From an uncultured Methanolobus sp. (GTDB lineage: Archaea > Halobacteriota > Methanosarcinia > Methanosarcinales > Methanosarcinaceae), in assembly GCA_963675495.1 (NCBI GenBank), contig OY776215.1, positions 192,001 to 256,000 of the forward strand: a stretch of 64,000 nucleotides of DNA, written 5' to 3'. Position numbers and translations under genes: made by a program. Positions 1 to 48,465 of this stretch are shown one piece after another; positions within the stretch are counted from its first letter, which is position 1; each line of letters starts with the position of its first letter. The notes below the pieces were generated by a model. It saw only the letters and a program-made list of their open reading frames with translations. It searched no databases and was not told the DNA's origin.

Positions 1-1829
1 GTGTTTGACTCGGACTTATACTCTGCCAGGAAACTGAGCTTATAGCGAATCTCGTAAAACTGTTTTAACTTTATTTGTAAAAAAGTAGGTTCAATACTTT
101 TGAACTCTGTGAAATCCATATTGTCATACCAATCCTTGAATAAAGTGTGCTCAAATTCACGAAAATTTTGGATAGTAAGATTTGGCTTATATGTTGACAT
201 TATTTGACTATGGTCTGGGTATTTTGCGTGTTCCATACCAGCACATTGTACAATTCCCTTTTTTAATATCTTGGGATACACCAACAAATTAATAACTGCT
301 ATATGGATAAGTTTCGTTAAAAAATCACTATTCTCTAATTTGTCTCTGTCGAGAATGGATAAATTGAAACAATCCCACTCCCCGTTCAGTAATTCATTTA
401 ATGCTAAGGGGGATGTGTGTATAAGAGAGAGTACAGGAACAATTATTTTTTCATATTCGAATTTTTGATAATGCTCAGTTAGTATAGTATCAAAATTATT
501 ATTTATAAATTCATTATTCAAGTTTTTTATACCAGAGTGTTTCAAAACTTCTTTTTCCATTATATTATAACAATTATCAATATTTCTTATCATAGATTCG
601 AGATCATAATCTCTATTGTACTCCTCCATTAGTTTTTCAAGACTATCTGGAAGATTTGAGTACATTGCTTTAAGGTCCTCAAGTAACTTGGCTGAATAAT
701 TTGGATTGTATTCATCTTTATTAATATCAATCTGACTCTTCCATTTATCTTCAAATTCATTCATCTCTGCACTGTAATTATCAGATAAATAATCGTTAGA
801 TAGCCTTAGGAAACTCTCTATTTCTCTGAGTTTTTCCAGTATTTGTTCATTATAACTCAACACTGTTCTAAGCACCTTTGAGAACGAAATTGCATTATCA
901 CCATAAAGCAAATAGTAGAAAGTATGAAAATTATCTTCTTTTATGCGGTTGATTTTTTCTATATTCGACATTCCATCACAAAATACTGGTAATTGCAGTT
1001 TCACATCTTCAAGTGGGGATCCAAACGATGGTGATACATATGAACGAGAATCATCAAATCGTTCAATTAATCTAACAGCTAAATTCTCATAATTTTGTAG
1101 TCCACTTTCGATAGAGTTAGTTGAATCATTAACCATTTCCAAAAATCCATTGCAAAATTCTGTCAAGTTATTAATGTGTGAACGTTCAGTTTTTTTTGCT
1201 TCTTCCTCAAACCTGTTAACCATTGATTCAATGATTTCAGTAACATCTTTTTTGCCTTCAGATATACCATAGTTTTTCTCATCCAGGTCTATCAGGCGTT
1301 GAGCACTTTTAAGGTCAAAATCCATGGGTGAAAAGAAACGAGTGATTGTCACTCCTTTTTCAGCCAATACTTCTCTTATGAGAGAATCATTAATGTTGTA
1401 AGTAAAATAGTAATTATCTAGAAGATCCATTGCTTCAGGATATGATAGAGATTTATCCAGATATATTTTTTTAAAACTGCCTTCGAGTATCAATTTGATA
1501 AGTATTCTAAAGGATTTTATTTTTGAACTTAATGAATATGGAGTAATATCCCCTCCCTTTAAATGTTCACCTGGTTCTTTTTCGAGTTTTTCCAAGATTC
1601 CCATGTCTGCAAACAATTCACATGCTTTGATTGCAGTAACTCTTGTCATTTCTTCGATGGTTCTTTCGATTTTTCCTGGATATGTTTTGAAGTGAGATAT
1701 TTCTTCTTTATTATTCCGTTTTTTGTTGCCAAGATATATTTCAATTTTTTTACTTTCTTCAATAATAAAATATTCAAGAATCCTCCACTGCTTCTCAGAA
1801 ATACGTTTTTTGGTATTTTTGTCACTCAC
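1..1829 (-). CDS. Large hypothetical protein (>609 aa, 3' end outside window), possible N-terminal winged HTH
   Basis: Read by hand on the minus strand: GTG at 1829 after a GAGGG RBS, open to base 1 (VSDKNTKKRISEKQWRILEYFII...TYPGKIERTIEEMTRVTAIKACELFADMGILEK...PYSLS). Missing from the ORF track because no stop lies in the window. Confidence 0.8.
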   Translation of the reverse strand, partial: MSDKNTKKRISEKQWRILEYFIIEESKKIEIYLGNKKRNNKEEISHFKTYPGKIERTIEEMTRVTAIKACELFADMGILEKLEKEPGEHLKGGDITPYSLSSKIKSFRILIKLILEGSFKKIYLDKSLSYPEAMDLLDNYYFTYNINDSLIREVLAEKGVTITRFFSPMDFDLKSAQRLIDLDEKNYGISEGKKDVTEIIESMVNRFEEEAKKTERSHINNLTEFCNGFLEMVNDSTNSIESGLQNYENLAVRLIERFDDSRSYVSPSFGSPLEDVKLQLPVFCDGMSNIEKINRIKEDNFHTFYYLLYGDNAISFSKVLRTVLSYNEQILEKLREIESFLRLSNDYLSDNYSAEMNEFEDKWKSQIDINKDEYNPNYSAKLLEDLKAMYSNLPDSLEKLMEEYNRDYDLESMIRNIDNCYNIMEKEVLKHSGIKNLNNEFINNNFDTILTEHYQKFEYEKIIVPVLSLIHTSPLALNELLNGEWDCFNLSILDRDKLENSDFLTKLIHIAVINLLVYPKILKKGIVQCAGMEHAKYPDHSQIMSTYKPNLTIQNFREFEHTLFKDWYDNMDFTEFKSIEPTFLQIKLKQFYEIRYKLSFLAEYKSESN

Positions 1830-1969
1830 TATACATCCCTCTTTTAATGAAACTAATTGTAAAGCTTTTTTTAAAATCATTTACAAATACAATTCTCTAA
1901 GTGTTTACTTCTTTGAAAACTATTTATATATTTCTAGGAAATTAGAACTATCAACTAAAGGAGGTTAGA

Positions 1970-2080
1970 ATGATGGATAAAAAATCAGATTGTGACAACC
2001 ATGCAAACCAGTGTAATCCGAACAATGACGCGTACTGGCAGAGCCGTGGTGAAGATGCAAAACCAGATGACAGTGAATAA
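1970..2080 (+). CDS. 36-aa microprotein MMDKKSDCDNHANQCNPNNDAYWQSRGEDAKPDDSE
   Basis: Strong RBS AGGAGG just upstream and TATTTATATA TATA box at ~1921. The N-H/R-x-N-Q-x-N-P-N-N-x-x-Y-W-x-S-R-G motif resembles a small-protein family I recall from bacteria and invertebrates. Confidence 0.8.
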   Translation: MMDKKSDCDNHANQCNPNNDAYWQSRGEDAKPDDSE

Positions 2081-2143
2081 AAGTGTAAGTAATAATTGTA
2101 GAACAAAGGAAAACGTTGTTGAACATAGATTAGGAGGAATATA

Positions 2144-2266
2144 ATGTCAGGTAAATCAATGGATTCTAAAGCAGCATCAAGGATACAGTCAAGCTCAGAC
2201 AAGTCAGGATCAAATCAGGGTTTCAAGGCCCGTGCAATGTCTGCAGCATCCAAAAACAAAAAATGA
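2144..2266 (+). CDS. 40-aa microprotein, SMP (seed maturation protein)-like: MSGKSMDSKAASRIQSSSDKSGSNQGFKARAMSAASKNKK
   Basis: RBS AGGAGG upstream. The pattern M-x-x-x-A-A-S-R-I-Q-S...F-x-A-R-A-x-S-A-A-x-K-N matches small SMP-like proteins. Followed by a hairpin. Confidence 0.8.
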   Translation: MSGKSMDSKAASRIQSSSDKSGSNQGFKARAMSAASKNKK

Positions 2267-2298
2267 AGTTACCCCAGCTTCATTTCACTTTCTTTTAT
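2261..2298 (+). terminator. Hairpin plus T-rich tract after the second microprotein
   Basis: AAATGAAG-ttaccccag-CTTCATTT stem followed by CACTTTCTTTT. Confidence 0.4.
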
Positions 2299-2312
2299 CA
2301 GGAGATATTACA

Positions 2313-3049
2313 ATGATAAGCGACATTAAAAATGAAAACTTGAAACAAAATGCTTTGGCAGTATTGATTGATGGCGACAACACTTCATACAGGTGTTTGA
2401 AGCAAATATTCAACGAGGTTGCAAAGTATGGTACAGCAACTATCCGCAAAGCTTATGGTGACTAGACATCCCAGGAACTGGCTCCATGGAGAGAGGTGCT
2501 TCAAGAATATGCAGTGCACCCAAGTCAGCAGTTCAGAAATGTAGGCAGTAAGAACTGTACCGACAGTTCACTTATCATAGAAGCCATGGACATTCTCTAC
2601 AACGAAAAGATCGATGGTATTGTAATAGTCTCCAGTGACAGTGATTACACACGCCTTTCTATGCGTTTTAGAGAAGAAGGTTATTTGTTCTGGGTATTGG
2701 TCGCAAACAGACTCCCAGGCCATTTGTAACGGCCTGCAGAAATTTTGTTTACGTTGAAAACCTCATAGACAAGAATGTAGAAAAGGATGATATATCAGAC
2801 AAAATTGAAGCAAAAAAGAAACAAGTATCTAAAACTCGAAAGATACTGGAAAATGCATATGAAAAACTCTCTGAAGGAAATGAATTGATACTGTTGTCAA
2901 AAGTCAGCAATATGCTGAGAAATCTAAATCCTGACTTTGATCCCCGTAATTATGGTTATTCCCAGCTTAACAAACTGGTTGAGGATGCAGGTGGATTTGA
3001 ATTGGTAAAAAAGAAGAATCATTTATACATGCGAAAATCGAGTTCCTGA
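2313..3049 (+). pseudogene. NYN (LabA/DUF88) ribonuclease with C-terminal OST-HTH/LOTUS domain, disrupted
   Basis: Motifs LAVLIDGDN, RKAYGD*, KNCTD, VSSDSDYTRL, and in another frame LGIGRKQTPRPFVTACRNFVYVE...PDFDPRNYGYSQLNKLV. TAG at 2463-2465 replaces the conserved Trp of AYGDW, and a frameshift lies at ~2681-2686. Confidence 0.85.
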
Positions 3050-3171
3050 TCGGTTCGCTTCTGATCAGTACTATACATGAGATTGATATAATCTCTATTT
3101 TCTTTTAATTTTAAATCTTCAGGAAAGAGTAAAAGCACAAGAAAATAAGCAGTTTAACTGTCAAACTTAGA

Positions 3172-3306
3172 TTATAAATAATAACATGTATCTTCAGTCT
3201 GCTGGATAACGGAACCTGATGTAAAACATATATCAATATTCTTTATCTCTTTCACCACAGTTGATTTTTCAATCTCTCTTACTCTCGTAAAACAGATTAT
3301 TCTCAT
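3172..3306 (-). pseudogene. Possible decayed P-loop nucleotide kinase N-terminus downstream of viperin
   Basis: MRIICFTRVREIEKSTVVKEI becomes MRIICFTGVRGIGKSTVV (Walker A after a hydrophobic strand) with three single G>A reversions. Confidence 0.35.
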
Positions 3307-3366
3307 GTTTTCATAACATTGGTATTCTAATCGGTATGCAATGTTTGCCAAAAAGAAAGGGCCGGT

Positions 3367-4266
3367 TCAATTCCAGTCATAGTTACCTCCCCTTTTGTGA
3401 TACTGATCAGCATCCACCAAATCAGTAAGTTCCATGTATTCCAATGATTCAAAAGGAATTGAAGAACGCTGCTTGTCATTGCTCAAAATAATATCCCCGT
3501 CTGGACCAATTATCAAATAGGAGTTCAGCATATCATTTGCTGATTCAAATGTAGGTGTTTCACCATTGCTGAGCACCATTCTTCCATTTATGTTCATGAA
3601 TGTGTCAAATTCTTCCTCAGTGAGGAGCAGATCAAGTGCATCATCATTCTGTCCCTTCATGTGAAGTACCTGGAATACCTTCCATCTCTCAGGATGTAGT
3701 GATAATATGAAATGTGTCATATCTTCGGAATAATTCAGTTTGGTAACTGTAGTATTTATCTTCAGCTTCATACCATATTTCCGTACAAATTCAGAAACTT
3801 TGCGTACGTGTTCAACATGGTTTCCATCTCCTCTTCCTAGTTGTTTTTGAATTTCCTCATCAGAAGAGTCAATTGATATACCAACCCAATCCACATAACG
3901 GCTCATTTCCTTGAGCTTATGTTCATTGAGCAAAGTTGCGTTTGTAACAATACTGACAGTGAATCCTATATCTTTTGCCATCTTTAAAAGATAGCTTAAA
4001 TCCTTGTATAGTAGAGGTTCTCCACCTGCAAAATTAATCTTCGTGATACCTTTGGACTTCAATGTCTCAAGCTTATGCTTAGCATTTTTAAGGTCTTTGA
4101 ATTCCCCACTCATATTTTTGTAGAAGCAGAACCTGCATTTATAATTACAATTCATGGTAACATGCCAGTTAACAGATTTTATCTCTGCATTTGTTATCGA
4201 ATCGAAATCAGAAATAGTATCTTTAAAATCCACTCTGGTAGGTATATCTACTAATGAACCACTCAT
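3367..4266 (-). CDS. Prokaryotic viperin (antiviral radical SAM ddhNTP synthase)
   Basis: SVNWH...CNYKCRFCF (CxxxCxxC), KINFAGGEP, SIVTN, GISIDS, KINTTV, RWKVFQ, and C-terminal RGGNYDW typical of viperins. Confidence 0.93.
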   Translation of the reverse strand: MSGSLVDIPTRVDFKDTISDFDSITNAEIKSVNWHVTMNCNYKCRFCFYKNMSGEFKDLKNAKHKLETLKSKGITKINFAGGEPLLYKDLSYLLKMAKDIGFTVSIVTNATLLNEHKLKEMSRYVDWVGISIDSSDEEIQKQLGRGDGNHVEHVRKVSEFVRKYGMKLKINTTVTKLNYSEDMTHFILSLHPERWKVFQVLHMKGQNDDALDLLLTEEEFDTFMNINGRMVLSNGETPTFESANDMLNSYLIIGPDGDIILSNDKQRSSIPFESLEYMELTDLVDADQYHKRGGNYDWN

Positions 4267-4658: not shown

Positions 4659-5708
4659 TTATTTCAATCCCCAATGACCGTTTCCAACCATGTAAAATAT
4701 GTCAAGATTGCCAGCCTTATAAGAACCTGTACCACTTGAATGCAATGCAATAGTCTTTCTGACACTATTTTTCCAGGAAGGTGTTAGATTCATATTATCT
4801 CTTTTTTCAATCTCATTGAATATATCTTCATTTTTTGCATCTCCACCTAACGTATCAAGTACACTGATTATTTCTTCAAGCCATGTATGTTTCGAAGATA
4901 ATTTTCTTGTATCAATAATAGGTGAAACAGGTTTTGTTGATACAACTGAAACAGGCTTTATAGAACTATCTTTTTCTTTATTTGTTAATGTTTCAATGAC
5001 AAGTTCAAGTGCAAATTTTTCACCTTGAGAGAGACTTGCATCTCTTGCATGTTTGAAAACAATCGTATTATATTGGTACGCTCTGTCATCTGAACTGATT
5101 AGAAGAGGTTGTTTACATCTTAATTGATAGTCAAGTATGCTTTTTAATGATGGTGATCTGTTTTTTGTATCAAGCGATAATCTGAAATTTTGGGTGAAAT
5201 AACGAGTTGCAAACATCCCCATCAAAATGATACATTTGGGTTTCATTGTATTGATGATCTCATCAAAATACATCTCAGCACATTTTAGGTCAGGTGCATT
5301 ATCTCTTCCACCAGCACCTTTTCCTGGATAACAATTTGCAGTATGCAACCAAAATACGCTTTTTTGCCACTTTTTCATTGCCTCACTTGGTTCGTCCTCA
5401 GGATATACCTTTGGAAATAAGAGATCTTTGAAAAAGGAGTTATTCATAGAACTCAATTCGTTGTCTGCCCATGCTTGTTTGGAAGGTGCTTGCGATATGA
5501 ATAAAATATCTTGTCCTCTCCAATCATCAACTAATGGTTTACCTTTTTTCAGTTCATCTGCACTGATTACTCGATTACCTTTTGTTCTCAAAGGATTCGT
5601 ATACTCATGAGTGTAACAAGCTAAGTTACAGTTACGTATTTTATTAACAATCTCTGTCATTGCTTTATCTTTTTCATTTTCATGAGTATCAAATGGCAAA
5701 TCAAACAC
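4659..5708 (-). CDS. Uracil-DNA glycosylase superfamily protein fused to a C-terminal winged-HTH
   Basis: ILFISQAPS (cf. GQAPG), HTANCYPGKGAGGRDNAP, IILMGMFA. The C-terminus TWLEEIISVLDTLGG...WKNSVRKTI...FYMVGNGHWGL resembles the wHTH found in restriction proteins. Confidence 0.75.
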   Translation of the reverse strand: MFDLPFDTHENEKDKAMTEIVNKIRNCNLACYTHEYTNPLRTKGNRVISADELKKGKPLVDDWRGQDILFISQAPSKQAWADNELSSMNNSFFKDLLFPKVYPEDEPSEAMKKWQKSVFWLHTANCYPGKGAGGRDNAPDLKCAEMYFDEIINTMKPKCIILMGMFATRYFTQNFRLSLDTKNRSPSLKSILDYQLRCKQPLLISSDDRAYQYNTIVFKHARDASLSQGEKFALELVIETLTNKEKDSSIKPVSVVSTKPVSPIIDTRKLSSKHTWLEEIISVLDTLGGDAKNEDIFNEIEKRDNMNLTPSWKNSVRKTIALHSSGTGSYKAGNLDIFYMVGNGHWGLK

Positions 5709-5884: not shown

Positions 5885-8446
5885 ATGCAAGAATCTATCA
5901 ACCTTATCCAATCACAAGCTACTAAATTAAAAAAACTGGAAGAAAATGAAAATTATCTTTTCGAACAATTAAACACCCTCGACGCTGATACTATAAGCAA
6001 GCTAATCAGTAATTTTGAGATTGAATACTTCCAGCCAGTTAACCTCTTACGTTTTGAAATCTTGCAGCACATAAAAGATAAAAAGATAGTGACACCTGAA
6101 TTAGTTGAAGAGATTAAGGATAAGATAGTAGCAAAAGATAGTGGTTACTTTTCAAAATACGGTGAAGCATTAGTAAACGGATTGTTGAATTATCCTGTAA
6201 AAAAGAAGACACCATTTGTGAACTGGAAGAAATATTATAGTATTTGTTTCCCATTTTTCTATCTTCCTAAAGACAAAATAGAATCTGACAATGGTCTCGA
6301 GAAAATTACAAATTATCTCATTAATACATTGGAATTGAAACAATACAAAACTCATATAGTCGGATTTGAAGGAGCTCAGAATTATGGCGCTTCATTTTGC
6401 TGGATTGCTTTGTTTCCAAATAAAAGGGTATCTCACAAGAAAGCATACCAGTTGTTTTTACGTATAAATAATCTGACAATTGATGCTGGTGTTTTTCCTG
6501 GATCGGATATAAATGACCCCTCTTCGAATACAGTTGATGAGTTTAATACTGTAGAGGAAGTGCTTGATAAGCTGCAAAATTCCAGAGAAATGGCTCAAAG
6601 TAAAAATGATTCACTAATTGATTATTGGAAATTTGCGCCAGGAGAAAATGGTAGTCGCTGGGAAGAATTTTATGAGTTAGGTATAATGGCAATTGGTTGG
6701 GATAATTTAGATGACCTCACTAATTACGCAACTGAAGAACTTGCTGATTCCTTAAATGTTGAGAATTCTTCCACCTCAAATCAAATATGGAATATTGAAA
6801 ATTTCAGAGATACTAGTATTGGTGATATAGTTGTAGCAAACAAGGGAAGAAGTAAGTGTTTAGGAATTGGTGTCATAGAGGGAGAATATATTTTTGATAA
6901 CAAAAGAACTGAATACAAGCATATTAGAAAAGTGAATTGGGTCATAAATGAGCTTGTAGATTTTGATAAAACAATTTTTAGGCCAGATACATTTTCTCCC
7001 ACTCTCAAATGGGAGACTATTAAAGGGAAATATATTAGTGTAAATCCTTCTTATGAAGATGTTTTCAACAACATAGAAGCAGGAAAAGTTGTTTTACCTC
7101 CTGCAAAGGTGTTGCCAAATGATTCAGGAACACAGAATTATTGGTGGCTGAATGCAAATCCAAAAATTTGGAAGATTGACAGTTTTGAGTTAGGTGACAT
7201 TCAGTCTTATACATCACATAACAACAAAGGCAACAAAAGAAGGGTGTACAAGTATTTTGAAGAAGTAATGCCTGGAGATCTAGTAATTGGATATGAAAGT
7301 TCCCCGATAAAGGAGATTAAAGGAATATTTGAGATTACAGAAAAACTACATTATGATGATATTGAAGGCGAAATAATCAGCTTTGAGATAAAGGAACTGG
7401 TTAAAGATATCATTAGTTGGGATGACCTAAAAGAAACTAAAGGTTTAGAAGAATGTGAAGTCATTAAGAACAATCAAGGTAGCTTATTCAAGTTAACAGC
7501 TGAAGAATTTGAAATAATAAGAGATCTGATTGACGAACGGAACATCAATAATGAAAAAGAAAAAGAACTATTGGACATAAAAGAATATTCCTTTTTTTCA
7601 GATGCAGATAAACCATTTATTGAAGAAGCTGAACTTAACGACATATTAGATTCTCTCGAAATCAAAAAGAACATTGTACTACAAGGTCCTCCTGGTGTCG
7701 GAAAAACTTTTGTTGCGAAAAAAATAGCTTATGAAATTATGAAAAAGACCGATGATACAAAAATTGAAATTGTCCAGTTCCATCAGTCATATTCATACGA
7801 AGATTTTATACAAGGCATCAGGCCATCAGAAAATACCTTTAAGGTTAAAAATGGTGTTTTTCATAATTTCTGCAAGAAAGCAGAACAAGACCCCGAAAAT
7901 AAGTATTTCTTCATAATTGATGAGATCAACAGAGGAAATCTCAGTAAAATTTTCGGAGAACTAATGATGCTGATAGAAACTGATAAGAGGGGCAAATCTA
8001 AAGTTCACCTGACTTATTCTGAAAAAGATGATGCTCCATTCTCTGTTCCAGAAAACCTTTATTTGATTGGTACGATGAACACCGCTGACCGTTCGCTGGC
8101 TATTGTTGATTATGCTTTGAGGAGAAGATTTAGGTTCATCCCATTAAAACCAAAGTTCAATAATAAATTTATTGATTTGCTAATTTCACAAGGTTTCTCA
8201 AAAGATTTTGTACTTGCTGTTATAACAAAAATCAATTCATTGAATGATAAAATCCAATCTGATCGAAACCTTGGAGAAGGATTTCAAATTGGTCATAGCT
8301 TTTTCTGTACCAATAATGTGAATAAGCCTGAAAGAGAGTGGTTTGAAGATATTGTGAAATATGAAATTGCACCACTTTTGGAAGAATACTGGTTTGATGA
8401 CATTGAAAAATCGAAAGCTGAAGTAAGACTGTTATTGTCTGAGTAA
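5885..8446 (+). CDS. mcrB: McrB-family AAA+ GTPase with N-terminal EVE/PUA-like reader domains
   Basis: GPPGVGKT, VQFHQSYSYEDF, IIDEINRGNLSKIFGEL, GTMNTADRS, LRRRF; EVE-like YWWLNANPKIW...MPGDLVIGYES. Confidence 0.93.
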   Translation: MQESINLIQSQATKLKKLEENENYLFEQLNTLDADTISKLISNFEIEYFQPVNLLRFEILQHIKDKKIVTPELVEEIKDKIVAKDSGYFSKYGEALVNGLLNYPVKKKTPFVNWKKYYSICFPFFYLPKDKIESDNGLEKITNYLINTLELKQYKTHIVGFEGAQNYGASFCWIALFPNKRVSHKKAYQLFLRINNLTIDAGVFPGSDINDPSSNTVDEFNTVEEVLDKLQNSREMAQSKNDSLIDYWKFAPGENGSRWEEFYELGIMAIGWDNLDDLTNYATEELADSLNVENSSTSNQIWNIENFRDTSIGDIVVANKGRSKCLGIGVIEGEYIFDNKRTEYKHIRKVNWVINELVDFDKTIFRPDTFSPTLKWETIKGKYISVNPSYEDVFNNIEAGKVVLPPAKVLPNDSGTQNYWWLNANPKIWKIDSFELGDIQSYTSHNNKGNKRRVYKYFEEVMPGDLVIGYESSPIKEIKGIFEITEKLHYDDIEGEIISFEIKELVKDIISWDDLKETKGLEECEVIKNNQGSLFKLTAEEFEIIRDLIDERNINNEKEKELLDIKEYSFFSDADKPFIEEAELNDILDSLEIKKNIVLQGPPGVGKTFVAKKIAYEIMKKTDDTKIEIVQFHQSYSYEDFIQGIRPSENTFKVKNGVFHNFCKKAEQDPENKYFFIIDEINRGNLSKIFGELMMLIETDKRGKSKVHLTYSEKDDAPFSVPENLYLIGTMNTADRSLAIVDYALRRRFRFIPLKPKFNNKFIDLLISQGFSKDFVLAVITKINSLNDKIQSDRNLGEGFQIGHSFFCTNNVNKPEREWFEDIVKYEIAPLLEEYWFDDIEKSKAEVRLLLSE

Positions 8447-8450
8447 ATCC

Positions 8451-9488
8451 ATGTCCATTCCAATTCAGAATATCTACTACCTTTTGTGTTATGCATGGAA
8501 CAAGCTTGATGAAAGCGATATTGTAGATGTCAAAGCAATCAGTATTACTGAACTTGTTGATCTATTTGCAAAAATATTAGCTAATAGTACTTCCAGATTG
8601 CTAAAACAGGGTTTGGATCGTTATTATGTTGAACATGAATACGTTGTAAATGGAATAAAGGGGAAATTAGACCTTACTGCTTCTGTAAAAAGAAATCTTC
8701 TTCCTTCAAATAGAACCGTTTGCCATTACGATGAATTTGATTATGATATCTTACACAATCAAATTTTAAAAACAACGATTTCCAAACTTATTAGGACGAA
8801 TGGCCTTGACCCTAAATTAAGAGATGAACTACATCGAATTTTAATAAAACTCCCTCCGATTTCGGAAATTTCAATTCGGCACTCTCATTTTAGTCAAATT
8901 CGATTACACAGGAATAATTACAATTATGATTTTCCATTAAAAGTGTGCCAAATTATCAATGAAAATTTGTTTATTGATGAGTCATCGGGAAATTACAAAT
9001 TTAAAGATTTCTTGCGAGAAGAAAAGGCAATGGCAAGATTATTTGAGGCATTTATTAGAAACTTCTATAAAGTAGAACAGTCCGAATTTAAAGTAGGAAG
9101 AGAAGATATAAAATGGAAATTTGTAGCTGAAAAAGAGACGCCTATATCGATGTTGCCTAAAATGTCCACTGATATTTCATTGGTATCATCCTCAAGAAAA
9201 ATAATAATTGATACCAAATATTATAAAGAAGCTCTTAAGGCTAGATTTTCGCAAGAAAAAATAAATTCCAACAACTTGTACCAGTTATTTTCTTATTTAA
9301 TAAATCAGGAGTCAGAGTCGGATGCCAAAACTCTGAACTGTGAAGGTATTCTGTTATATCCAGCTGTTGAAAAGGGCTTTGATTTTTGCTATAATTATGA
9401 AAATCATAGAATCAGAGTGATGTCAATAAACCTTAATCAAGAGTGGTATGATATCAGGAAGGATTTGTTGGAAATACTCTCTAGATAG
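8451..9488 (+). CDS. mcrC: McrC restriction endonuclease subunit
   Basis: IPIQNIYYLLCYAW, LFEAFIRNFY, TDI...IIIDTKYY, NLYQLFSY, GILLYP; 4 bp after mcrB. Confidence 0.93.
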   Translation: MSIPIQNIYYLLCYAWNKLDESDIVDVKAISITELVDLFAKILANSTSRLLKQGLDRYYVEHEYVVNGIKGKLDLTASVKRNLLPSNRTVCHYDEFDYDILHNQILKTTISKLIRTNGLDPKLRDELHRILIKLPPISEISIRHSHFSQIRLHRNNYNYDFPLKVCQIINENLFIDESSGNYKFKDFLREEKAMARLFEAFIRNFYKVEQSEFKVGREDIKWKFVAEKETPISMLPKMSTDISLVSSSRKIIIDTKYYKEALKARFSQEKINSNNLYQLFSYLINQESESDAKTLNCEGILLYPAVEKGFDFCYNYENHRIRVMSINLNQEWYDIRKDLLEILSR

Positions 9489-13626: not shown

Positions 13627-16335
13627 TCACCATCCCTTCAAAAGATGTTGTTTCTTCTCATTATCATCAAGCACCTTCGCACAGGATTCCCAGTCAATAG
13701 AGACCGGTTTATTATACCGTATTTCAAATGGATGCCTCGGAGGTATCTCGTCAATGGTTTTCATTGCATCATCTATCTTATTCAATGCAACATCTACCCA
13801 TACATCCTCAAGTACATCAGGTATCTGGCCAAAAAGCGAGTTGATCTTTTCAAGCCTCTCTGAAAGAAGTTCATGTACTCTGTCCTCTACTGAACCCTTA
13901 TAGCGCATATTGTAGATCCACACGTCATCATAGACTTGGCCAATACGCTGTATCCTTCCTTTTCTCTGTTCAAGTCTTGTTGGGTTCCAGGGTAAATCAA
14001 GGTTAATGAGTGTACCGAGTGTCTGAAGGTTCAGACCCTCACTGGCGGCATCCGTTCCAAGTAACAGTTTTATTGTGCCTTTGCGTACAAGTGCCTTGAT
14101 CTCTTCACGTGATGCACGCTGGAATGTTCCATTTTCTATGATACCAGAACGATTGCTTCCTGCATATATGCCAATCTTCTCTTCGGTTAACTCTTCTTTT
14201 AGTTTATCGGCAAGCCACTGTATAGAATCATAGTATTGTGAAAAAATGATGCAACCCCGCTCAAGCCATCTATCGTTCTTCAGAATATCCAGGACTTTTT
14301 CATATTTAGGGTCGGTGTCCATATGCTCATTAATTATCTGAGCGAACCTTGACAACAGGAATCTTTCGGCTTCAGACATGTTTTCAAAGAGCTCACTTCT
14401 CTGAACATCTTCTTCTTCTTCTTCGGAATCAAACTCTGAATCCTTGCGAACTCCAAGCATTTTATTTGCAGTGACTTTTCCTGCATATAATGTACTTCCA
14501 ACACGTCTAAGAAGAAGGGTTTTTAAGAAGCCTGTACCTTTTGCCCTTTCGCTAAGTAACTGACAGAACTCTTCTGCAGCCTTATATGCATCCTGAAGAT
14601 ATATTGGGAGAGGAATCGCATCCTTATCGTCCTCTCCGAACAGTTTGACCTCGATCTTCTGAATGTATGGCTCTCCTGTTTCAGGATTCTTGGTATTTTC
14701 AAGGAAATCCCTTGTTCTTCGTACTATATGCCTAATGTAAGGGTTATGATTCTGAAAAAAGTCATCTTTCATTCTTTCAAGTCTTGCTCTATCAGGAGGA
14801 CTGAGCTCAATCCACCTTCCTGAATTTGTAACTGCCACAGAATCAGGAAGTGAAAGAGAACTTCTGATAATCTGATAATCTAATCCTTCTGAAGTCGGAG
14901 GCAAGGGGTTAGCTATGTAATTAAAGAGTCCATCTTCATTTATATCCAAGGGCTTATTTCCTTGGATCATATCCAAAGATATAAATGGCTCTTTTATCCA
15001 AGTGCTACGTCTGTTACCTAAAACAGATTCATTTCCTCCACTTCCAAGTATGGATAGAAGATCGTATGCTTCGATAGGGTAGAGCTGTACAGGTGTTGCT
15101 GTTGCCAGAAGCATACTTTTACTATTTCCTGCAATCTCCTGGAGGAAAGCAAGAAGGTTATTTGGTTCCGCTCCTTCATTCTCATGTGTAGGACCGAGAT
15201 TCTTCCTTCTGGCCCTGTGAGATTCATCAACGATAATGCAGTCGTATTTTTTTGACTTTAATAAATCTGGTATGTTCGACCTTTCGTTCCCATAAGAATG
15301 GATTATTAGGCCATACGAGAGGATACCAATCCTACGAGGACATTTTAGTATGCCTTCTTCACCATATTTTGGATATTCGATCCCTTCTTCATCTACCCAC
15401 CTGCCATTGTCCCATACTGCAGATGGAAGGTTTAGGTGCTCTTTCATCTCATCCTGCCACTGCCAGCGCAGGGTTGCAGGTGTGAGAATCAATATGGGTT
15501 TATCTCCAGTAAGAGCGATCAACTGTGCTGTCATTGCCAATTGTAGTGTTTTGCCAAGCCCTACCATGTCTGCAAGGACGAAGCGTGCTCCATGCTTTGT
15601 TTGATGGGCCTTGAATGCAATGTCTATGAAGTATTTCTGATGCTCCCAGAGTCCGAGTTCATTCCTGTAAACCGGACTTTCTACAATCGCAGATGCAGCT
15701 TCCGGTTGTTTCTGCCATTCGATGAGTGATGGTATAACTTCACGTTTTGCAATCCTTCCGATGTCTTCAATTATGAATTCTGCAAGCACCTTATAGTCCG
15801 GATGGTTCCACAGGGCATCAAACTCTTCCTGCACCCAGTTAATGGCATCGTCGGAATCATCTTCCCATACAAGCTCATAGTTACGTTTCCAGGCGGACAG
15901 TGTCTCATTGATGCTTCCCATGAATGCAGTTTTTGTCCCATCGGTCTTTGTTATGACCCCGGCTTTCCCATGGATCAGCCCGAATGACTTGTCAGGAAGC
16001 ACCCTTACCTGAAGTTTCCCGGACTTCAGATACTTGTAAAGTTTCGCAAATCTGCCACGAGCTTTCTCATCAACCTTTTCAGGTTCCTCTGCACACCACT
16101 CTTTCCGTATAGCTGCAAGAGCAGCACGTGCAGTTTTCACATCTTCAGGTTCAAGCTGTGAGTTACACACAACCCGAACAGTCCCTTCAACCGAATCCAG
16201 CGCCTCTCCCGCAACCTCAAGAATAGATGAACTGAAATAGCCTGCTATTCTATCATATTTCTTAGCACCTTCAAGGCGCTTGTTAAGGAACGTTGCATCC
16301 AGAGGTTCCCGGCGGGATGAGAAACGTTTGATCAA
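13627..16335 (-). CDS. PLD-nuclease + SNF2 helicase of the DUF499/DUF3780/DUF1156 restriction-like system
   Basis: YDRIAGYFSSS, HGKAG...GSINET (PLD-like), LADMVGLGKT, VDESH, ATATP, DAASEGLNLQ, WNPTRLEQRKGRIQR. Confidence 0.9.
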   Translation of the reverse strand: MIKRFSSRREPLDATFLNKRLEGAKKYDRIAGYFSSSILEVAGEALDSVEGTVRVVCNSQLEPEDVKTARAALAAIRKEWCAEEPEKVDEKARGRFAKLYKYLKSGKLQVRVLPDKSFGLIHGKAGVITKTDGTKTAFMGSINETLSAWKRNYELVWEDDSDDAINWVQEEFDALWNHPDYKVLAEFIIEDIGRIAKREVIPSLIEWQKQPEAASAIVESPVYRNELGLWEHQKYFIDIAFKAHQTKHGARFVLADMVGLGKTLQLAMTAQLIALTGDKPILILTPATLRWQWQDEMKEHLNLPSAVWDNGRWVDEEGIEYPKYGEEGILKCPRRIGILSYGLIIHSYGNERSNIPDLLKSKKYDCIIVDESHRARRKNLGPTHENEGAEPNNLLAFLQEIAGNSKSMLLATATPVQLYPIEAYDLLSILGSGGNESVLGNRRSTWIKEPFISLDMIQGNKPLDINEDGLFNYIANPLPPTSEGLDYQIIRSSLSLPDSVAVTNSGRWIELSPPDRARLERMKDDFFQNHNPYIRHIVRRTRDFLENTKNPETGEPYIQKIEVKLFGEDDKDAIPLPIYLQDAYKAAEEFCQLLSERAKGTGFLKTLLLRRVGSTLYAGKVTANKMLGVRKDSEFDSEEEEEDVQRSELFENMSEAERFLLSRFAQIINEHMDTDPKYEKVLDILKNDRWLERGCIIFSQYYDSIQWLADKLKEELTEEKIGIYAGSNRSGIIENGTFQRASREEIKALVRKGTIKLLLGTDAASEGLNLQTLGTLINLDLPWNPTRLEQRKGRIQRIGQVYDDVWIYNMRYKGSVEDRVHELLSERLEKINSLFGQIPDVLEDVWVDVALNKIDDAMKTIDEIPPRHPFEIRYNKPVSIDWESCAKVLDDNEKKQHLLKGW

Positions 16336-17048
16336 TCGTAATACTCTCCTGCATATTCTGCTTCACATTCCAACTTAAATGATAAATCTTCATGTATTTC
16401 ATCGCGGATACAATCAAGCATTAATGAAATCCAATCAACAACTAGTGAAAGATTTTGGATATTGAAAACTTGAACAGACCCATCAGATAGCATCGCATTG
16501 CCATTTTTGTCTACAGGATATCGGAATGATTGTGCTGTGTGGTCTTTTGAAATTTCTTTTATAAAATGACCTATTGTATTTAAATCATTATTGTATTCGG
16601 ATCTATCTGAATATTTATCTCCAAATTTCATCTTTAGTAGAATATCTTTGCATTCAGACCACAGACGGATTAAATCATGACCAGTGGAAAAGGAATTATT
16701 ATTATCTATGAGTCGCCTGCCGTTAATTATGATTTCTTTCATTATTAGTTCTAAGTAATGATTAAAGAGATAGAATATTGGATATCCAAATGTATTGGAT
16801 GCAAAATCGCCCTTTTTCACACTTTCTATTAGTTGCTTAACAGCTTCCAAATAACCATTGGAATATGCACTCCAAGGACTTCCCATGCTAATCTTAAAGG
16901 TCTCATAATTTAGGTCTTCATTTTCATTAAACACATGACATTCGTTATATACAATACCTTCAAGGCTCCAATTATCCTTAGAATAATCATCTGATTCGAA
17001 TAACTTCAAAGAGCAATCAGGTCGGTCAGGAACTTTAGAATCATACAT
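16332..17048 (-). CDS. HEPN-like protein inserted in the restriction-like operon
   Basis: Y-x-x-G-Y...YPIFYLFNHYLELIMK...GHDLIRLW...SFRYP. Likely start is the ATG at 17048, overlapping the methylase stop; its stop overlaps the helicase start. Confidence 0.7.
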   Translation of the reverse strand: MYDSKVPDRPDCSLKLFESDDYSKDNWSLEGIVYNECHVFNENEDLNYETFKISMGSPWSAYSNGYLEAVKQLIESVKKGDFASNTFGYPIFYLFNHYLELIMKEIIINGRRLIDNNNSFSTGHDLIRLWSECKDILLKMKFGDKYSDRSEYNNDLNTIGHFIKEISKDHTAQSFRYPVDKNGNAMLSDGSVQVFNIQNLSLVVDWISLMLDCIRDEIHEDLSFKLECEAEYAGEYYD

Positions 17049-19941
17049 GGTCCTGCTCCACAACAACCGACAGCATCTTTGCAGCCTTAGAGTCTTCCTG
17101 CCACTGCTCCATGGCATCGTTCATTCCCAGCGAAGCGAAGTACCTGAGTAGTTCCACGATCTCCTTCCTCTTCTCCCAGTACCCCGGATATTCTCGTAGC
17201 CACACCTTACCTGCTGCAGTATCCTCTTCCTGTCTTGTCTGACGAATTGCGAACAGTATACTCCTCACAAGTGATGATGAGAAGCCTTCCCCACCAACAT
17301 CACGGTCCTTAAATTCCAAAGCTGTCTTGAGCCTTGTCTCATTTGCTTTCCCGCTCTGCTGCAGGTTCTTATATTCCCTAATACCAAATCCACGTGCAAG
17401 TTCCTGATAAGCTCCGGTCCTGTATTCTCCATGACTTTCAAGCTCAAGCCCCTTTAGATAGAACCTCTCTTCAGGCATGAGTTGTTTCCAAACCCACGAG
17501 TCAATACCTGCAGGCACAAGATAATCACAGGCAATCTTTACCGCATTCTCAATGACTCCCTCCAGAGGGTTCCTCTCTCCCTTCCCTCTCGCACGGCTAA
17601 GCTCACGCTCGATATCAATATCCTCTATCTGTTTGTAACGAGTAAGCACACGCAAAGCAGCTGCATAAGCCGCAAGCTGGTAGTCAGTATCCCCAAAGTT
17701 AGGGTCTTCCTTGTCATCGATCTCCAGCATTGAATTTAGCTGGTTTTTGACTTCCTCTTCAACTTCTGGGTAGATCTCGTCAAGGAATGCAACATCGTCT
17801 GAGGACTGTTTACGAAGGACCAGAAGGACAGTTCCCTGGACATAATTTCCTTTTTTAATTCCAGTTGATTCTGTTTCTGTTGCAATACACCATGCAGCTG
17901 TCACTTGTAATCCGGCAGCCCATAAAATCATTGCAAGATCAGCCCAGACATTTGTGTCTTGGTGAGTGAACATTACAACTTGAGCACCGTTTTCAGGCAT
18001 ATGATTAGTAAGGTTCCTATACACTTCCACCATACTTTTTCGGAATTCTTCATCTGAACCTTTTATAGCAATAGCACGTTTTGAATCGATGTTCCAATTA
18101 GGAAACAGCTCTTTCAGTGATTTTTGATACCATGCAAGGAAAAACTCAGACAATTCATGATAGTTAATTGCGTCGGCATAAGGTGGATCCGTAATCCAAA
18201 ATGAGTTATTATTGTCAATAGACCTTGCATCTTGAGAATACAATGTTTTTTGCGTATTTACCTCGAAGGAATTAAAAGATATAAAAAAAGGATGTTTTAA
18301 CAAACTCATCCCACGATTCGCAAAATTATAAACGGTGTTCAACGCTTGATTGTAATATGTCTGTGATGTGCCTTCTTTTCCTGATTGCGGATACCATCGG
18401 GATAACTTGCTACTCCAATCGCAGCATTTTCCAATCCCAAGTAATATTGAAATTTTCTGAATGTCAGAATACTCTTTCTTATGCATTTTCTCTTTACAAA
18501 GTGATGTGAACATTAACTGTCTAGGAGTAAATAGGTGATGCCAGTGTGTCCATCCACGTGTCCTTATGGGTTCATTTGTTTTTGCTCCATCTTCGATGTT
18601 TAAGTTTGGCAGGTATCCCATTTCCTGCCATTCTACAAACCTGTCATTTAATAATTTAAGTACTTTGTTTTCATTTTTGATATCGTGTTCGTTAGGTGCA
18701 AGATAATGTTTTCGTATGTTTTCTTGCCCTTTATCGTTTTGATATTGTTCAACCCATCGAATACAGTATAAGCGCTCTTGAAAAACATCTTCTTTTCTGG
18801 GAACGATATCATGATTCTCCCAAAGACGTAGACCTCCCTCATAATCACGTCTTAGGGTCGTTATTGCAATTGGTGATTTGTGTCCAGGACAATCATGATT
18901 TGGACAAATTACCCGACTATTCTCGATTGTCTTGTTTTTGTTAGCCAGTTTAATATCTTCTGCCGATGCTTCCTGCTGAAGCACAATATTGTATCGTTGA
19001 TTATCGTCATCAGGATCAAGTTTCACTATTACTTTTGAGTATTCACTAACAATCATTGTTGGAAGAAGAGGAACTTGCCAACCACATTCAGGGCATGTTA
19101 CCTCTGAGCAGTAAAGATAAGCATCAGCACGCCAACCTTTATCATTGTGCTCGATGCCCAATTCAGTAACTTGTTTGTCCACGGCATCGTAAACTTCTTG
19201 CTGGGCCTTTCGTACTTCATCTACAACCTCTTCTCCACCACCAATTATGTTCAATGATGCCCATGTAAGGAGAGCAGCAACAGGATTTAAGTCAGATCCA
19301 AAAACATCACAGCCGATACGAGCAGCTTCAAATGGAACACTGCCCCCACCACAAAAACAGTCTCCTACAGAAGGTCTTTTTCCAAATTGCTGCTTGCCAA
19401 GCTCTTCAACAAGTTCAGGGATTGTAGATGCATTAGTTCCAAGATACTCATTAATTTCTTTCCATGTTTCCACTGAGGGGCCATTAATCTCTTCTGGACG
19501 GTAAGAATAAGCTAGGCGTTCATCATAACCCATACGAAGGAAAACCATCTTTTGAAGTCCTTCTTTCTCTTCTGATGAAAGTCCGCGGCGAATCCTATCA
19601 CCATCAAAATAATCATTTTTCTCTCTGTGAATCAGATATTCTTTCAACACTCTACCCGGAATGTTTGTCTTTTTCCTTTGCCACATCCCCTCATCGTCCA
19701 TTGTCAGGAGTTTTAGGAATATTTCACGGTCTTTTGTGGGGTTATCAGTTGCAGGGAGAAGTAAACCCAGAACAGCCGCTCTTACAAGAATCAATGGTTT
19801 CCTTCCCCACCATTTTCCTAGTCCTGTGAGTGTCTGGCTATAGTTCGATTTCCTCTCCTTGTAACTCTCCTTGGAAACCTTGGAAACAGGAAATTGTGAT
19901 TCAATGAACGACTTATTAAAAGGAATACTATCAACTGACAT
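17041..19941 (-). CDS. DUF1156 DNA adenine methyltransferase (restriction-like system)
   Basis: LGKWWGRKPL, DCFCGGGSVPFEA (SAM binding), ITDPPY (catalytic), Cys pairs CPECG/CPNHDC. Confidence 0.92.
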   Translation of the reverse strand: MSVDSIPFNKSFIESQFPVSKVSKESYKERKSNYSQTLTGLGKWWGRKPLILVRAAVLGLLLPATDNPTKDREIFLKLLTMDDEGMWQRKKTNIPGRVLKEYLIHREKNDYFDGDRIRRGLSSEEKEGLQKMVFLRMGYDERLAYSYRPEEINGPSVETWKEINEYLGTNASTIPELVEELGKQQFGKRPSVGDCFCGGGSVPFEAARIGCDVFGSDLNPVAALLTWASLNIIGGGEEVVDEVRKAQQEVYDAVDKQVTELGIEHNDKGWRADAYLYCSEVTCPECGWQVPLLPTMIVSEYSKVIVKLDPDDDNQRYNIVLQQEASAEDIKLANKNKTIENSRVICPNHDCPGHKSPIAITTLRRDYEGGLRLWENHDIVPRKEDVFQERLYCIRWVEQYQNDKGQENIRKHYLAPNEHDIKNENKVLKLLNDRFVEWQEMGYLPNLNIEDGAKTNEPIRTRGWTHWHHLFTPRQLMFTSLCKEKMHKKEYSDIQKISILLGIGKCCDWSSKLSRWYPQSGKEGTSQTYYNQALNTVYNFANRGMSLLKHPFFISFNSFEVNTQKTLYSQDARSIDNNNSFWITDPPYADAINYHELSEFFLAWYQKSLKELFPNWNIDSKRAIAIKGSDEEFRKSMVEVYRNLTNHMPENGAQVVMFTHQDTNVWADLAMILWAAGLQVTAAWCIATETESTGIKKGNYVQGTVLLVLRKQSSDDVAFLDEIYPEVEEEVKNQLNSMLEIDDKEDPNFGDTDYQLAAYAAALRVLTRYKQIEDIDIERELSRARGKGERNPLEGVIENAVKIACDYLVPAGIDSWVWKQLMPEERFYLKGLELESHGEYRTGAYQELARGFGIREYKNLQQSGKANETRLKTALEFKDRDVGGEGFSSSLVRSILFAIRQTRQEEDTAAGKVWLREYPGYWEKRKEIVELLRYFASLGMNDAMEQWQEDSKAAKMLSVVVEQDHV

Positions 19942-19968
19942 GTTATCTCCTGATATTAAAAAATTAAA

Positions 19969-20604
19969 TTAGAAATCGAGTAAACTGCCCTGCTTTTTCT
20001 TTTCCTGGTCTGTGACTTTTCCCTCATCATCCAGGCTTGCGATAAGACCGACACGTTGCTCTGCTTTAGCAGAGTTGATTGGATTGTTACATAGGGCAAA
20101 CCTGACCGCTGTTCTCCAGCCGGTGTTCCTGCCTCGCAGTGCCTGACCTGTTGCAGCGTTTGTCATGGTATAGAGCCACCAGCGTTCTTCCGGGAGAAGA
20201 CCAAGCCAATTTGCAACAGCTGAATGGATACGACCGGGGTCTGCATCCTCAATAGCCCAGCCAAGAAGAACAAGCTCTTTTCCGAACAGACGAGAAACTG
20301 GTGTAAGGCCTCTTGCCTTCCACCGTCCTTTCTTGTATCCAGTCTCTTTCAAGCGGCGGTTGAATTCAGAGGATACAGCATCTGCAATTCCATCCCATTT
20401 AACCCTCGGGAGGAAAACTCGCAGGCGTTCATCACTCTCATCCTTCACTGCACGTATCTTACCCTTCCACATCTCACTATCCCAGGACATGTGCTCGGAT
20501 ATCTGCACATCTCCGGTGGGGGAAGGAACAGACACAAGGAAATAATGCTCCGACTCAGCCGGCTTGAATCCAAAACCCTCTACAACGGAACTTTCACGAC
20601 TCAC
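19969..20604 (-). CDS. DUF3780 protein (restriction-like system)
   Basis: GFGF, EFNRRL, RLFGKELVLLGWAIE, NWLGLLPEERWWLYTMT, GWRTAVRFAL. Confidence 0.88.
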   Translation of the reverse strand: MSRESSVVEGFGFKPAESEHYFLVSVPSPTGDVQISEHMSWDSEMWKGKIRAVKDESDERLRVFLPRVKWDGIADAVSSEFNRRLKETGYKKGRWKARGLTPVSRLFGKELVLLGWAIEDADPGRIHSAVANWLGLLPEERWWLYTMTNAATGQALRGRNTGWRTAVRFALCNNPINSAKAEQRVGLIASLDDEGKVTDQEKKKQGSLLDF

Positions 20605-23600: not shown

Positions 23601-23663
23601 ATCCCTTCGATTTCTGTCAAAAATTGAATCGCGCACTTTACATAAGCTTTCAATTGATTGCAC
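20601..23663 (-). CDS. DUF499 ATPase with C-terminal Fn3-like domains (restriction-like system)
   Basis: QAMGGGKTH, LILLDELPPY, YPFHP, FQQTRG, IRYTTDGSNP. Confidence 0.9.
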   Translation of the reverse strand: MQSIESLCKVRDSIFDRNRRDVVLDISDVVESKIDPYDFFEENYLTEGMKSLFKQVFRRFANESDSSIFKLTQAMGGGKTHCMIGLALLAKYPEIREKVMGESFAKNVLGPINVVVFNGRESDAPYGIWGSIAEQIGKKDFFKDYYSPLQAPGKSAWVNLLKGQKLLILLDELPPYFENAKSKSIGNTDLSVVTKTALSNLLVALGTDELSQVSIVLSDLKATYESGSQQISQALHDFENEVGRGSVNIEPVGLNTDEVYQILKKRIFSDFPDDDTILSIAQAYGDIIKEAGQMDLTHVSPDKIVQQVRDSYPFHPAIKDLYARFRENPGFQQTRGLIRFMRVLVSHLYESEGAKNAILIHPHMIDLNNPEMSAEINLINSTLGNAISHDIASDGDSVAEMEDLKRSGSDAQDISKLILMASLANVENSVLGLTTSEIITDIAAPGRDLATLPDMISTLESQLCWYLHRANNGKVYFKNTENLVARLRSLAESYGREAALKDVKEFLQAIFVSERKDCYQELQVLPAVDDITISQDKVKLVLYEPHGGALHPHLNEFYEALDYKNRVCFISGQRDTMNNLISVGKEYKAIKSILADMDSSGIRSDDTQRIIAQDLKDNIIHRLLSSARETFTRLHYPHNDDLRVTDLTMNFEGNKCRGEDLIRSTLTDKQKFTIEVDGDTFRKKCEQRLFTQQNMQWSEIKKRAAILTKWQWHHPNALDNLKDEMLRKEQWRIDGGYVDKGPFPAPSTAVQVMEWNRDEETGDVILKVIPVNGDTVYYDVGGEATTASAKVTDYQNLAIKDMRVSFLCVDSKGLHEAGEKYSWSNSVTLKKRVFGDGDKKTVELKAAPASATIRYTTDGSNPKNAGGIYTSPFEIDRSVRIVLAIAEKEGVESEQLRIDIDWKAEKTGLSLEKPATWKHTLSIKATKDTFDFTDHLKKYNARVPEARLSIIGKSWIELNVDSGIELSGEQIEKLIESLREVYSDGQVGIDARSIKFTTGQDMKDFADAEKASINMDEVTQ

Positions 23664-23820
23664 TTATACCCTCCATGGGAATTTGAAATATAATATTTTC
23701 AAAATAATTTTATACATTAAATGTGGTTAGATTTATATGAGGATTTCGATTTATTCTTAAAAAACTATACACCAGATTGTTGTTTTTATCATGTTTTTAT
23801 CTTCATAAATCCAAAAAGCA

Positions 23821-48464: not shown

Positions 48465-48465
48465 A

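Follow-up and report, generated by a model that had tools for sequence, protein, structure and literature searches.

Two small-protein families that recur beside viperin, Mokosh and other antiviral genes, described from a decayed Methanolobus locus

Viperins form a family of nucleotide-modifying proteins. According to one preprint, roughly 2% of archaeal genomes outside Asgard and 0.5% of those of bacteria encode one, and nucleotide kinases are known partners of the prokaryotic members, or pVips (10.1101/2023.09.13.557418). Small genes are also on record next to pVip: according to another report, hicA and relE, which encode small RNase toxins, lie directly upstream or downstream of it with no obvious partner antitoxin (Gerdes, 2024; PMC10865869). 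Mokosh type I has been presented as a pair of genes encoding the helicase MkoA and the PLD nuclease MkoB (Millman et al., 2022 preprint). Work on viperin and Mokosh treats them as systems of one or two genes, and most annotation cut-offs exclude genes as short as 36–40 codons. Here, two such genes, pep1 and pep2, are described from a 64,000-nt stretch of an uncultured Methanolobus genome (hereafter the window; positions 192001–256000 of a complete 2.87-Mb genome, whose closest named relative in the searches was Methanolobus vulcani B1d), together with their relatives in other archaea and in bacteria. They are read as a defence-associated accessory module that travels with antiviral systems, a reading to which we give a probability of roughly 0.6.

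The differences between the two genes of the window and their relatives accumulate at third codon positions, with 63, 58 and 162 differences at positions 1, 2 and 3 for pep1 and 203, 138 and 396 for pep2. In the comparison with the M. vulcani copy of pep2, 16 codon changes are synonymous and 2 non-synonymous. The third-position excess therefore identifies pep1 and pep2 as real genes and, by this substitution pattern, they are genuine translated small-protein genes under purifying selection. A sequence-only reading of the same DNA had noticed two microgenes with AGGAGG ribosome-binding sites behind a TATA box, and had taken their intactness beside a broken NYN gene as a hint of selection; the sites are in place (Table 1), and the hint is borne out by the third-position bias and by the lesions of the NYN gene detailed below. 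The upstream block TGAAAACTATTTATAT is kept in four of the six aligned orthologue upstream regions (the window, M. vulcani, L042 and L039) and probably functions as a TATA-type promoter.

The two products differ in character. The pep1 peptide has a net charge of about −5 (counted from the sequence) and carries the motif NPNNDAYW (fuller form DNHANQCNPNNDAYWQSRG), and the pep2 peptide has a net charge of about +7 and follows the pattern ...AASRIQS..DKSG.NQGFKARA.SAASKNKK. All 20 scored candidate relatives of pep2 lie at 63–90% identity, and pep1 gathers 571 representative clusters at E ≤ 0.001, frequently as tandem repeats. Each gene is single-copy in the genome of the window; among 301 genomes sampled from the class, pep1 is present in 11 and pep2 in 20. 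No Pfam, NCBIfam or PADLOC model matched either peptide. A search of 2.9 million viral contigs returned 16 loci with pep1 and none with pep2, and by these counts the families are cellular rather than viral. Both families are widespread, with members in bacteria as the earlier reading had expected; the occurrence in fungi and invertebrates that it also expected was not confirmed, the source collections carrying no taxonomy; some proteins with the pep1 motif do look eukaryotic, with signal-peptide-like N-termini or as long S/Q-rich proteins. Repeats of pep1 also occur fused to a nucleotidyltransferase domain, which scores above the Pfam cut-off in one protein (P0110) and below it in another (P0074), and a search for longer forms of pep2 gave four proteins of 78–96 amino acids (aa) without domains. 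Matches of pep1 on TPR proteins were set aside as an apparent chance likeness to a TPR loop motif, as judged by eye.

The two families are tied to each other by adjacency and by fusion. In 7 of the 11 pep1-bearing genomes of the class, pep2 is the next gene after pep1. The same adjacency is found in Methanoregula, Methanoperedens, a Saprospiraceae bacterium and Pseudoalteromonas, with the order reversed in some, and it was seen in about 12 lineages. In Poseidoniales, other Thermoplasmatota, a Bathyarchaeia metagenome-assembled genome (MAG) and a gammaproteobacterial MAG, a single protein of 99–116 aa combines a head rich in RGG with one or two NPNN repeats resembling pep1 and with a complete pep2 domain. 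The model of a Mokosh-linked fusion protein has a predicted local distance difference test score (pLDDT) of 59 and a predicted template modelling score (pTM) of 0.19, too weak for a fold search; it shows a helix-loop-helix over the pep2 part only, the remainder being unstructured.

The viperin of the window is a prokaryotic viperin by its profile scores and motif. It reaches 261.8 bits on NCBIfam NF038283 (viperin_w_prok; curated cut-off 180) and 264.5 bits on the PADLOC pVip model, its stop-free open reading frame (ORF) carries CNYKCRFC at residues 40–47 (CxxxCxxC) with Cys columns invariant in the alignment, and it is 75% identical to the M. vulcani pVip. Its relatives were surveyed from both sides, with 6-kb flanks around the best 78 related pVip loci and a 10-kb reach around 62 pep2 loci in representative genomes, a pep2 ORF being detected in 60 of the latter. 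From the viperin side, pep2 is present in 16 of the 78 loci. It lies directly 3' of pVip on the same strand in ten of them and after a divergently transcribed Csa3-like gene in four; of the remaining two, L220 is otherwise arranged and M. vulcani has pep2 5 kb away. The hosts span Methanomicrobiales, Methanosarcinales, Bathyarchaeota, an Asgard MAG, Planctomycetota and an Acholeplasmataceae MAG. Seen from pep2, which adds a Pseudomonadota MAG to these hosts, pVip is present in 8 of the 62 loci (six confirmed by NCBIfam, one a split gene, one by BLAST alone). In the 301 class genomes, pVip is present in 8 of the 20 with pep2 and in 20 of the 281 without (Fisher one-sided p = 1.2e-4, with kin not independent), and in five of the eight genomes that have both, the two genes are at most 5 kb apart. 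The proximity to viperins foreseen by the sequence-only reading thus stands for pep2, whereas for pep1 the link is weak (4 of the 78 loci, two of them identical copies).

A maximum-likelihood tree was built from 79 viperins. Explaining the distribution of pep2 on it takes at least 11 changes, of which supported branches force eight, and pep2 occurs in each of the two main halves obtained by midpoint rooting (14 of 44 and 3 of 35 rows). The linkage of pep2 and pVip has therefore been gained or kept many times. In the usual operon of this viperin group, pVip stands divergent from a Csa3-like gene and is followed by a kinase gene, in some cases a second pVip, and a TPR gene, the partners scoring 306.9 bits (Csa3), 82.6 bits (VakA) and 450.5 bits (TPR) on PADLOC models. 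The VakA score belongs to the kinase at L198:6812-7390; a related kinase, that of M. vulcani, which served as query, reaches 42.3 bits on Pfam AAA_17. Csa3-like genes were found in 29, TPR genes in 18 and VakA-like kinases in 18 of the 78 pVip loci. The 18 loci with a kinase and the 15 with pep2 beside pVip do not overlap (p = 0.017, with kin not independent), and the sole kinase-bearing operon that has pep2 nearby has it at 5 kb. This avoidance suggests that operons with pep2 represent a different accessory configuration of the viperin system. Other arrangements include pVip followed by pep2 and TPR (L088, L092) and two-gene pVip-pep2 operons without a TPR or nuclease partner (L205, L241, L248). 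Upstream of the last of these, in a Promethearchaeota MAG (L248:4358-6986), stand a divergent ArsR-type winged-helix gene and a match to an oligonucleotide cyclase of the type found in the cyclic oligonucleotide-based antiphage signalling system CBASS (PADLOC 81 bits). A complex prediction for the L228 pVip with its adjacent pep2 gave a score of 0.04 against a mark of 0.32, which weighs neither for nor against binding.

Viperin is one of several recurring partners. In eight loci, the fusion protein is encoded by a third gene following mkoA and mkoB of Mokosh type I, and in one more the arrangement is divergent; in L057 and L075 there is an overlap between the start of the fusion gene and the stop of mkoB, and the Mokosh proteins of these relatives score 353 bits (MkoA) and 105 bits (MkoB) on PADLOC models. 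Nine proteins of the window were scanned with PADLOC and yielded only a weak partial MkoA match (30 bits, on McrB) and no MkoB. NYN RNase genes adjoin pep1 in 8 of 80 loci, as the sequence-only reading had anticipated, and pep2 in 3 of 62, all within 94–230 bp; six of the eight pep1-linked cases are an HTH-NYN fusion in Dehalococcoidia. The WYL genes that it had named alongside NYN did not appear, no WYL domain being seen among the neighbours scanned. A TPR protein of 580–650 aa is encoded directly downstream of pep1 or pep2 in eight loci. The strongest neighbours, namely these Mokosh and TPR links in relatives and the divergent 805-aa protein here called BIG, had escaped the earlier reading, as had the kinase remnant of the window.

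BIG homologues adjoin pep2 in 9 of the 62 loci and pVip in 6 of the 78, in divergent or co-directional orientation. The protein is rare, with 8 proteins at E ≤ 1e-5, that of the window included (8000 candidates scored in 5.8 billion), and no Pfam, NCBIfam or PADLOC family was assigned to it. The full gene is L048:9463-11880, and the true start of the window copy may be an in-frame GTG near 1829. The AlphaFold model of BIG has a pLDDT of 79.4 and a pTM of 0.74. Foldseek against PDB returned nothing at E ≤ 0.001; the only recurring matches were small winged-helix regulators, at probabilities up to 0.99 and non-significant E values of 0.3–1.2. The model would fit a novel helical body with a head that binds DNA. 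A profile-profile comparison of BIG, the viperin-associated TPR protein, TPR648 and two nameless families (428 and 455 aa) found that the two TPR families have TPR repeats in common, and no other likeness.

Around pep1, loci frequently contain recombinases and type I restriction genes. In a further pattern, pep1 is always convergent with, and at most about 200 bp from, a gene for an unannotated protein of about 400 aa in Pseudomonas (L153, L156, L161, L167, L170, L175, L184, L185) or about 410–455 aa in Burkholderiales and kin (L134, L135, L143, L148, L152, L168), neither of which matches Pfam or PADLOC.

The reading of pep1 and pep2 as an accessory module that travels with antiviral systems draws on their coding capacity, their selection, their pairing and fusion, and their tight and repeated placement in antiviral operons. 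In the genome of the window, pep1, pep2 and the NYN-LOTUS pseudogene would form a single transcription unit read from the conserved TATA promoter and probably regulated by the divergent BIG with its winged-helix-like part. Since the peptides have no enzyme fold, we infer a role as non-enzymatic accessory subunits, which would be co-expressed with an effector and controlled by a winged-helix regulator, either Csa3-like or BIG. Their ligands may be RNA, ribonucleoprotein, or repeat and winged-helix domains in the partner proteins, and by such binding they may gate, target or boost RNA-directed effectors, whether synthesis of 3'-deoxy-3',4'-didehydronucleoside triphosphates (ddhNTPs), an RNase or a helicase-nuclease. 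Each single biochemical role, be it that of an adaptor or of an RNA binder, is a tentative proposal and is less probable than its alternatives taken together. Still less likely is the wider proposal that these are a hitherto unrecognised class of modular disordered immune microproteins, partly related to eukaryotic LEA/SMP proteins, which would serve viperin, Mokosh, NYN RNases and TPR sensors across archaea and bacteria as a shared bait or adaptor, with TPR or winged-helix partners sensing their state and so setting off or aiming RNA-directed defence.

Several points weigh against the accessory-module reading. Enzymes as unlike one another as these partners speak against a single specific protein-protein interface, and the peptide models are of low confidence and largely disordered. 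Labelled neighbours were missing from 30 of the 60 pep2 loci in which an ORF was detected and from 64 of the 80 pep1 loci, so the families are not confined to the defence contexts recognised here. The neighbour labels themselves rest on crude longest-ORF calls and BLAST thresholds, and the counts come from partly related representative genomes, among them two Methanoculleus loci, two loci of one MAG and the near-identical L092 and L228. The four sequencing runs listed for the organism are all of DNA type, from one study, and none is RNA. In the window itself, two of the proposed partners have decayed, and the viperin lies outside the operon of the peptides and is a remnant of a rearranged pVip operon. 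The viperin-linked regulon put forward by the sequence-only reading, in which the peptides would be signals, scaffolds or effectors, finds its linkage across relatives, through pep2, more than in the window.

Among the alternatives, the peptides may be guardees or labile antidotes, that is, disordered baits or short-lived inhibitors whose infection-driven modification, cleavage or depletion is read by a TPR or winged-helix neighbour, or frees a nuclease (NYN or MkoB), so that the system is switched on. The order pVip, pep2, TPR, the nuclease neighbours and the disordered, low-confidence peptide models would suit such a mechanism, as would the position of a peptide gene directly upstream of the TPR protein in eight loci, where pep1 and pep2 are interchangeable, and the adjacency of BIG, with its winged-helix-like part, to pep2 in both orientations. 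The two-gene pVip-pep2 operons contain no TPR or nuclease partner, and the peptides bear no mark of being protease or modification targets; we consider this explanation unlikely. About equally unlikely is that the peptides are stress hydrophilins of LEA/SMP type, carried as cargo of variable islands, whose proximity to defence genes is co-location without shared function. The resemblance of pep2 to SMP, the absence of a recognised defence neighbour from half the loci with pep2 and from most of those with pep1, and the recombinases and type I restriction genes of pep1 loci, which mark mobile or variable regions, all agree with it. However, island co-location does not predict same-strand placement about 40–300 bp from pVip in several phyla, nor the stop/start overlap with mkoB, the gene fusion and the exclusion from kinase-bearing pVip operons.

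The opposite charges, adjacency and fusion of the two peptides also recall a miniature toxin-antitoxin-like pair, in which the basic pep2 would arrest growth and the acidic pep1 neutralise it, and the RNase toxin genes hicA and relE offer a precedent beside pVip (PMC10865869). Yet pep1 is missing from 50 of the 60 pep2 loci in which an ORF was detected and from 15 of the 16 pep2-bearing pVip loci, the two genes are seen in both orders rather than as an obligate pair of fixed order, and no Pfam toxin family was matched, which makes the pair improbable. Lastly, the short conserved ORF directly 3' of a radical S-adenosylmethionine (radical-SAM) gene in ten loci could be taken for a ribosomally made precursor peptide that the neighbouring enzyme modifies. 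That enzyme, however, scores as a viperin equivalog (187–294 bits against a cut-off of 180), the pep2 domain also occurs in Mokosh, NYN and TPR contexts without a radical-SAM gene, its conservation over the full length leaves no variable core of the kind that marks precursors of ribosomally synthesised and post-translationally modified peptides, and no protease or exporter gene recurs among the neighbours; this is the least probable of the explanations, and very improbable in itself.

The layout of the window is given in Table 1. The co-orientation of the microgenes with a NYN-LOTUS gene and their convergence on an intact viperin, both described earlier from the sequence, were confirmed by the ORFs and by Pfam, NCBIfam and PADLOC. 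In M. vulcani, BIG is divergent from pep1, pep2 and NYN, and at a distance a Csa3-like gene is divergent from pVip, the kinase gene, a second pVip and the TPR gene. The window has retained BIG, pep1 and pep2, the function of NYN has been lost, and the viperin operon has been reduced to one inverted pVip and a kinase stub, which corresponds to residues 44–82 of the M. vulcani kinase (54% identity, E = 7e-9). Queries from M. vulcani found no Csa3-like or TPR gene anywhere in the genome of the window. The locus is thus a decayed copy, with a pseudo-NYN gene, a kinase remnant and neither a Csa3-like nor a TPR gene; the window itself carries less of the immunity link than its relatives do. A second short viperin fragment lies outside the window (G000:C1:417948-418076) and matches residues 216–258 of the M. 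vulcani pVip at 65% identity.

Compared with its intact 262-aa M. vulcani orthologue, the NYN-LOTUS gene is broken by a TGG>TAG change at 2463–2465 and a 1-nt deletion near 2680; both domains are detected on the fragments (NYN 58.5 bits, OST-HTH 39.6 bits), though no intact reading frame joins them. Methanosarcinaceae decode some TAG codons as pyrrolysine. The TAG alone might therefore be read through, and the frameshift further on would still break the protein.

Table 1. Positions of the features of the window (numbered from its first nucleotide) and the basis of each assignment.
Feature	Position	Strand	Basis and remarks
BIG (805-aa protein), 5' part	3..1880	-	ORF; divergent from the microgenes; runs past the left edge of the window
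Candidate archaeal-type promoter	1915..1934	+	Sequence; GAAAAC resembling a B recognition element (BRE-like) 5' of TTTATATA box at 1923-1930; conserved block in relatives
pep1 (36 aa, acidic)	1970..2080 (ATG 1970, stop 2080)	+	ORF; AGGAGG at 1959-1964, 5 nt before ATG
pep2 (40 aa, basic)	2144..2266 (ATG 2144, stop 2266)	+	ORF; AGGAGG at 2132-2137, 6 nt before ATG
NYN-LOTUS RNase pseudogene	2313..3049	+	Pfam NYN and OST-HTH on fragments; 3' of pep2, co-oriented
Kinase remnant (VakA-like), about 40 of about 190 residues	3199..3309	-	tblastn; just downstream of the viperin
pVip (prokaryotic viperin), intact, 299 aa	3367..4266	-	NCBIfam, PADLOC; convergent with the microgene operon
349-aa protein	4659..5708	-	No PADLOC match; between viperin and McrBC
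McrB with EVE domain, McrC	5885..9488	+	
Gabija (GajA, GajB)	directly next, region to 13583 (+ strand)		PADLOC; GajA 820 bits, GajB 744 bits
PLD+SNF2 helicase, 261-aa unknown, DUF1156, DUF3780 and DUF499 proteins; then UvrD-PD-(D/E)XK helicase-nuclease	13627..26910	-	
Three huge ORFs (2634, 2992 and 1251 aa)	30972..52221	+	Pfam scan; Tc/ABC-toxin-type domains
Tyrosine integrase gene	56321..57535	-	Phage_integrase; right part of the window

The microgenes are surrounded by a defence island composed of McrB(EVE)-McrC, GajA-GajB and the PLD/SNF2-DUF1156-DUF3780-DUF499 cluster, which is putatively DISARM-like. The 349-aa protein gave a sub-threshold match to the uracil-DNA-glycosylase superfamily (23.4 bits against a cut-off of 24.3). 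The three huge ORFs carry SpvB, TcdB mid regions and RHS; ABC_toxin_N, VRP1 and a neuraminidase-like domain; and a TcA TcB-binding domain, a Tc-toxin-like gene set that is unexpected for a methanogenic archaeon. An Rfam scan of the window found no family and a tRNA scan no gene, and since no tRNA gene was found anywhere in the window, the borders of the island are undefined.

If a conserved small protein is part of about one-fifth of archaeal-type pVip operons and of a Mokosh subfamily, heterologous tests that omit it may misjudge activity or specificity. The associations described here also provide a first testable functional context for two large hypothetical small-protein families, one of them related to the plant seed-maturation (LEA) proteins. 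Should the bait or adaptor proposal be true, the peptides would be a prokaryotic counterpart of decoy/guardee logic and a hint at the function of SMP-type proteins.

In a full-text literature search covering pVip, Mokosh, SMP and viperin with Csa3, VakA or CARF, the peptides were unmentioned; the original pVip paper and the supplements of all papers lay outside its scope. The NYN-LOTUS (OST-HTH) proteins share the NYN and OST-HTH domain pair with the window gene, which differs from them as a pseudogene, and the literature search found no recurring pairing of NYN with pep1 or pep2. The hicA and relE genes (PMC10865869) resemble pep2 as small genes immediately upstream or downstream of pVip. The pep2 peptide, in contrast, has 40 aa and is predicted to be a helix-loop-helix or disordered rather than an RNase fold, and no HicA/RelE-type toxin family in Pfam, NCBIfam or PADLOC matched either peptide.

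The resemblance of pep2 to the SMP/LEA family (PF04927) lies in the pattern ...A..RIQS....G....F.ARA.SAA.KN., and the Atlas clusters nearest to pep2 have PF04927 on 18–19% of their members. Of the longer bacterial proteins that match the pep2 profile, one exceeds the Pfam SMP gathering threshold of 22 bits (L241, 22.5 bits) and three fall below it (L179, 19.1; L242, 16.8; L180, 15.9). For the pep2 of the window and 21 archaeal-type members, no SMP match was found at E ≤ 10, nor was one found genome-wide. The label SMP-like, given to pep2 by the sequence-only reading, is thus apt for a remote resemblance and not for the window peptide by direct match. Unlike the SMP family, archaeal pep2 is a single 40-aa unit with a shorter loop, not a multi-repeat protein, and its context is antiviral rather than that of desiccation. 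By motif and profile, pep2 is a remote relative of a single SMP repeat.

The closest described systems also include Mokosh type I and the archaeal-type pVip operon. Relatives of pep2 stand inside MkoA-MkoB operons and, relative to the two-gene form given in the Mokosh preprint, add a third gene, whose product of 99–116 aa is rich in RGG and combines pep1-like repeats with a pep2 domain; beside the peptides of the window there are no Mokosh genes. To the archaeal-type pVip operon (PADLOC PDLC02903-05 for pVip, PDLC02909 for Csa3, PDLC02911 for VakA and PDLC02907 for TPR) the viperin of the window does belong, and a kinase remnant has been kept, whereas Csa3-like and TPR genes are missing from the window and pep2 is outside every PADLOC model. 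What distinguishes the loci described here from that operon is pep2 itself, which at 14 of the 78 loci takes the position behind pVip or behind the Csa3-like gene and does not stand beside kinase-bearing operons. Taken with the third gene of the Mokosh operons, this suggests that a small component of viperin- and Mokosh-type systems has been overlooked until now.

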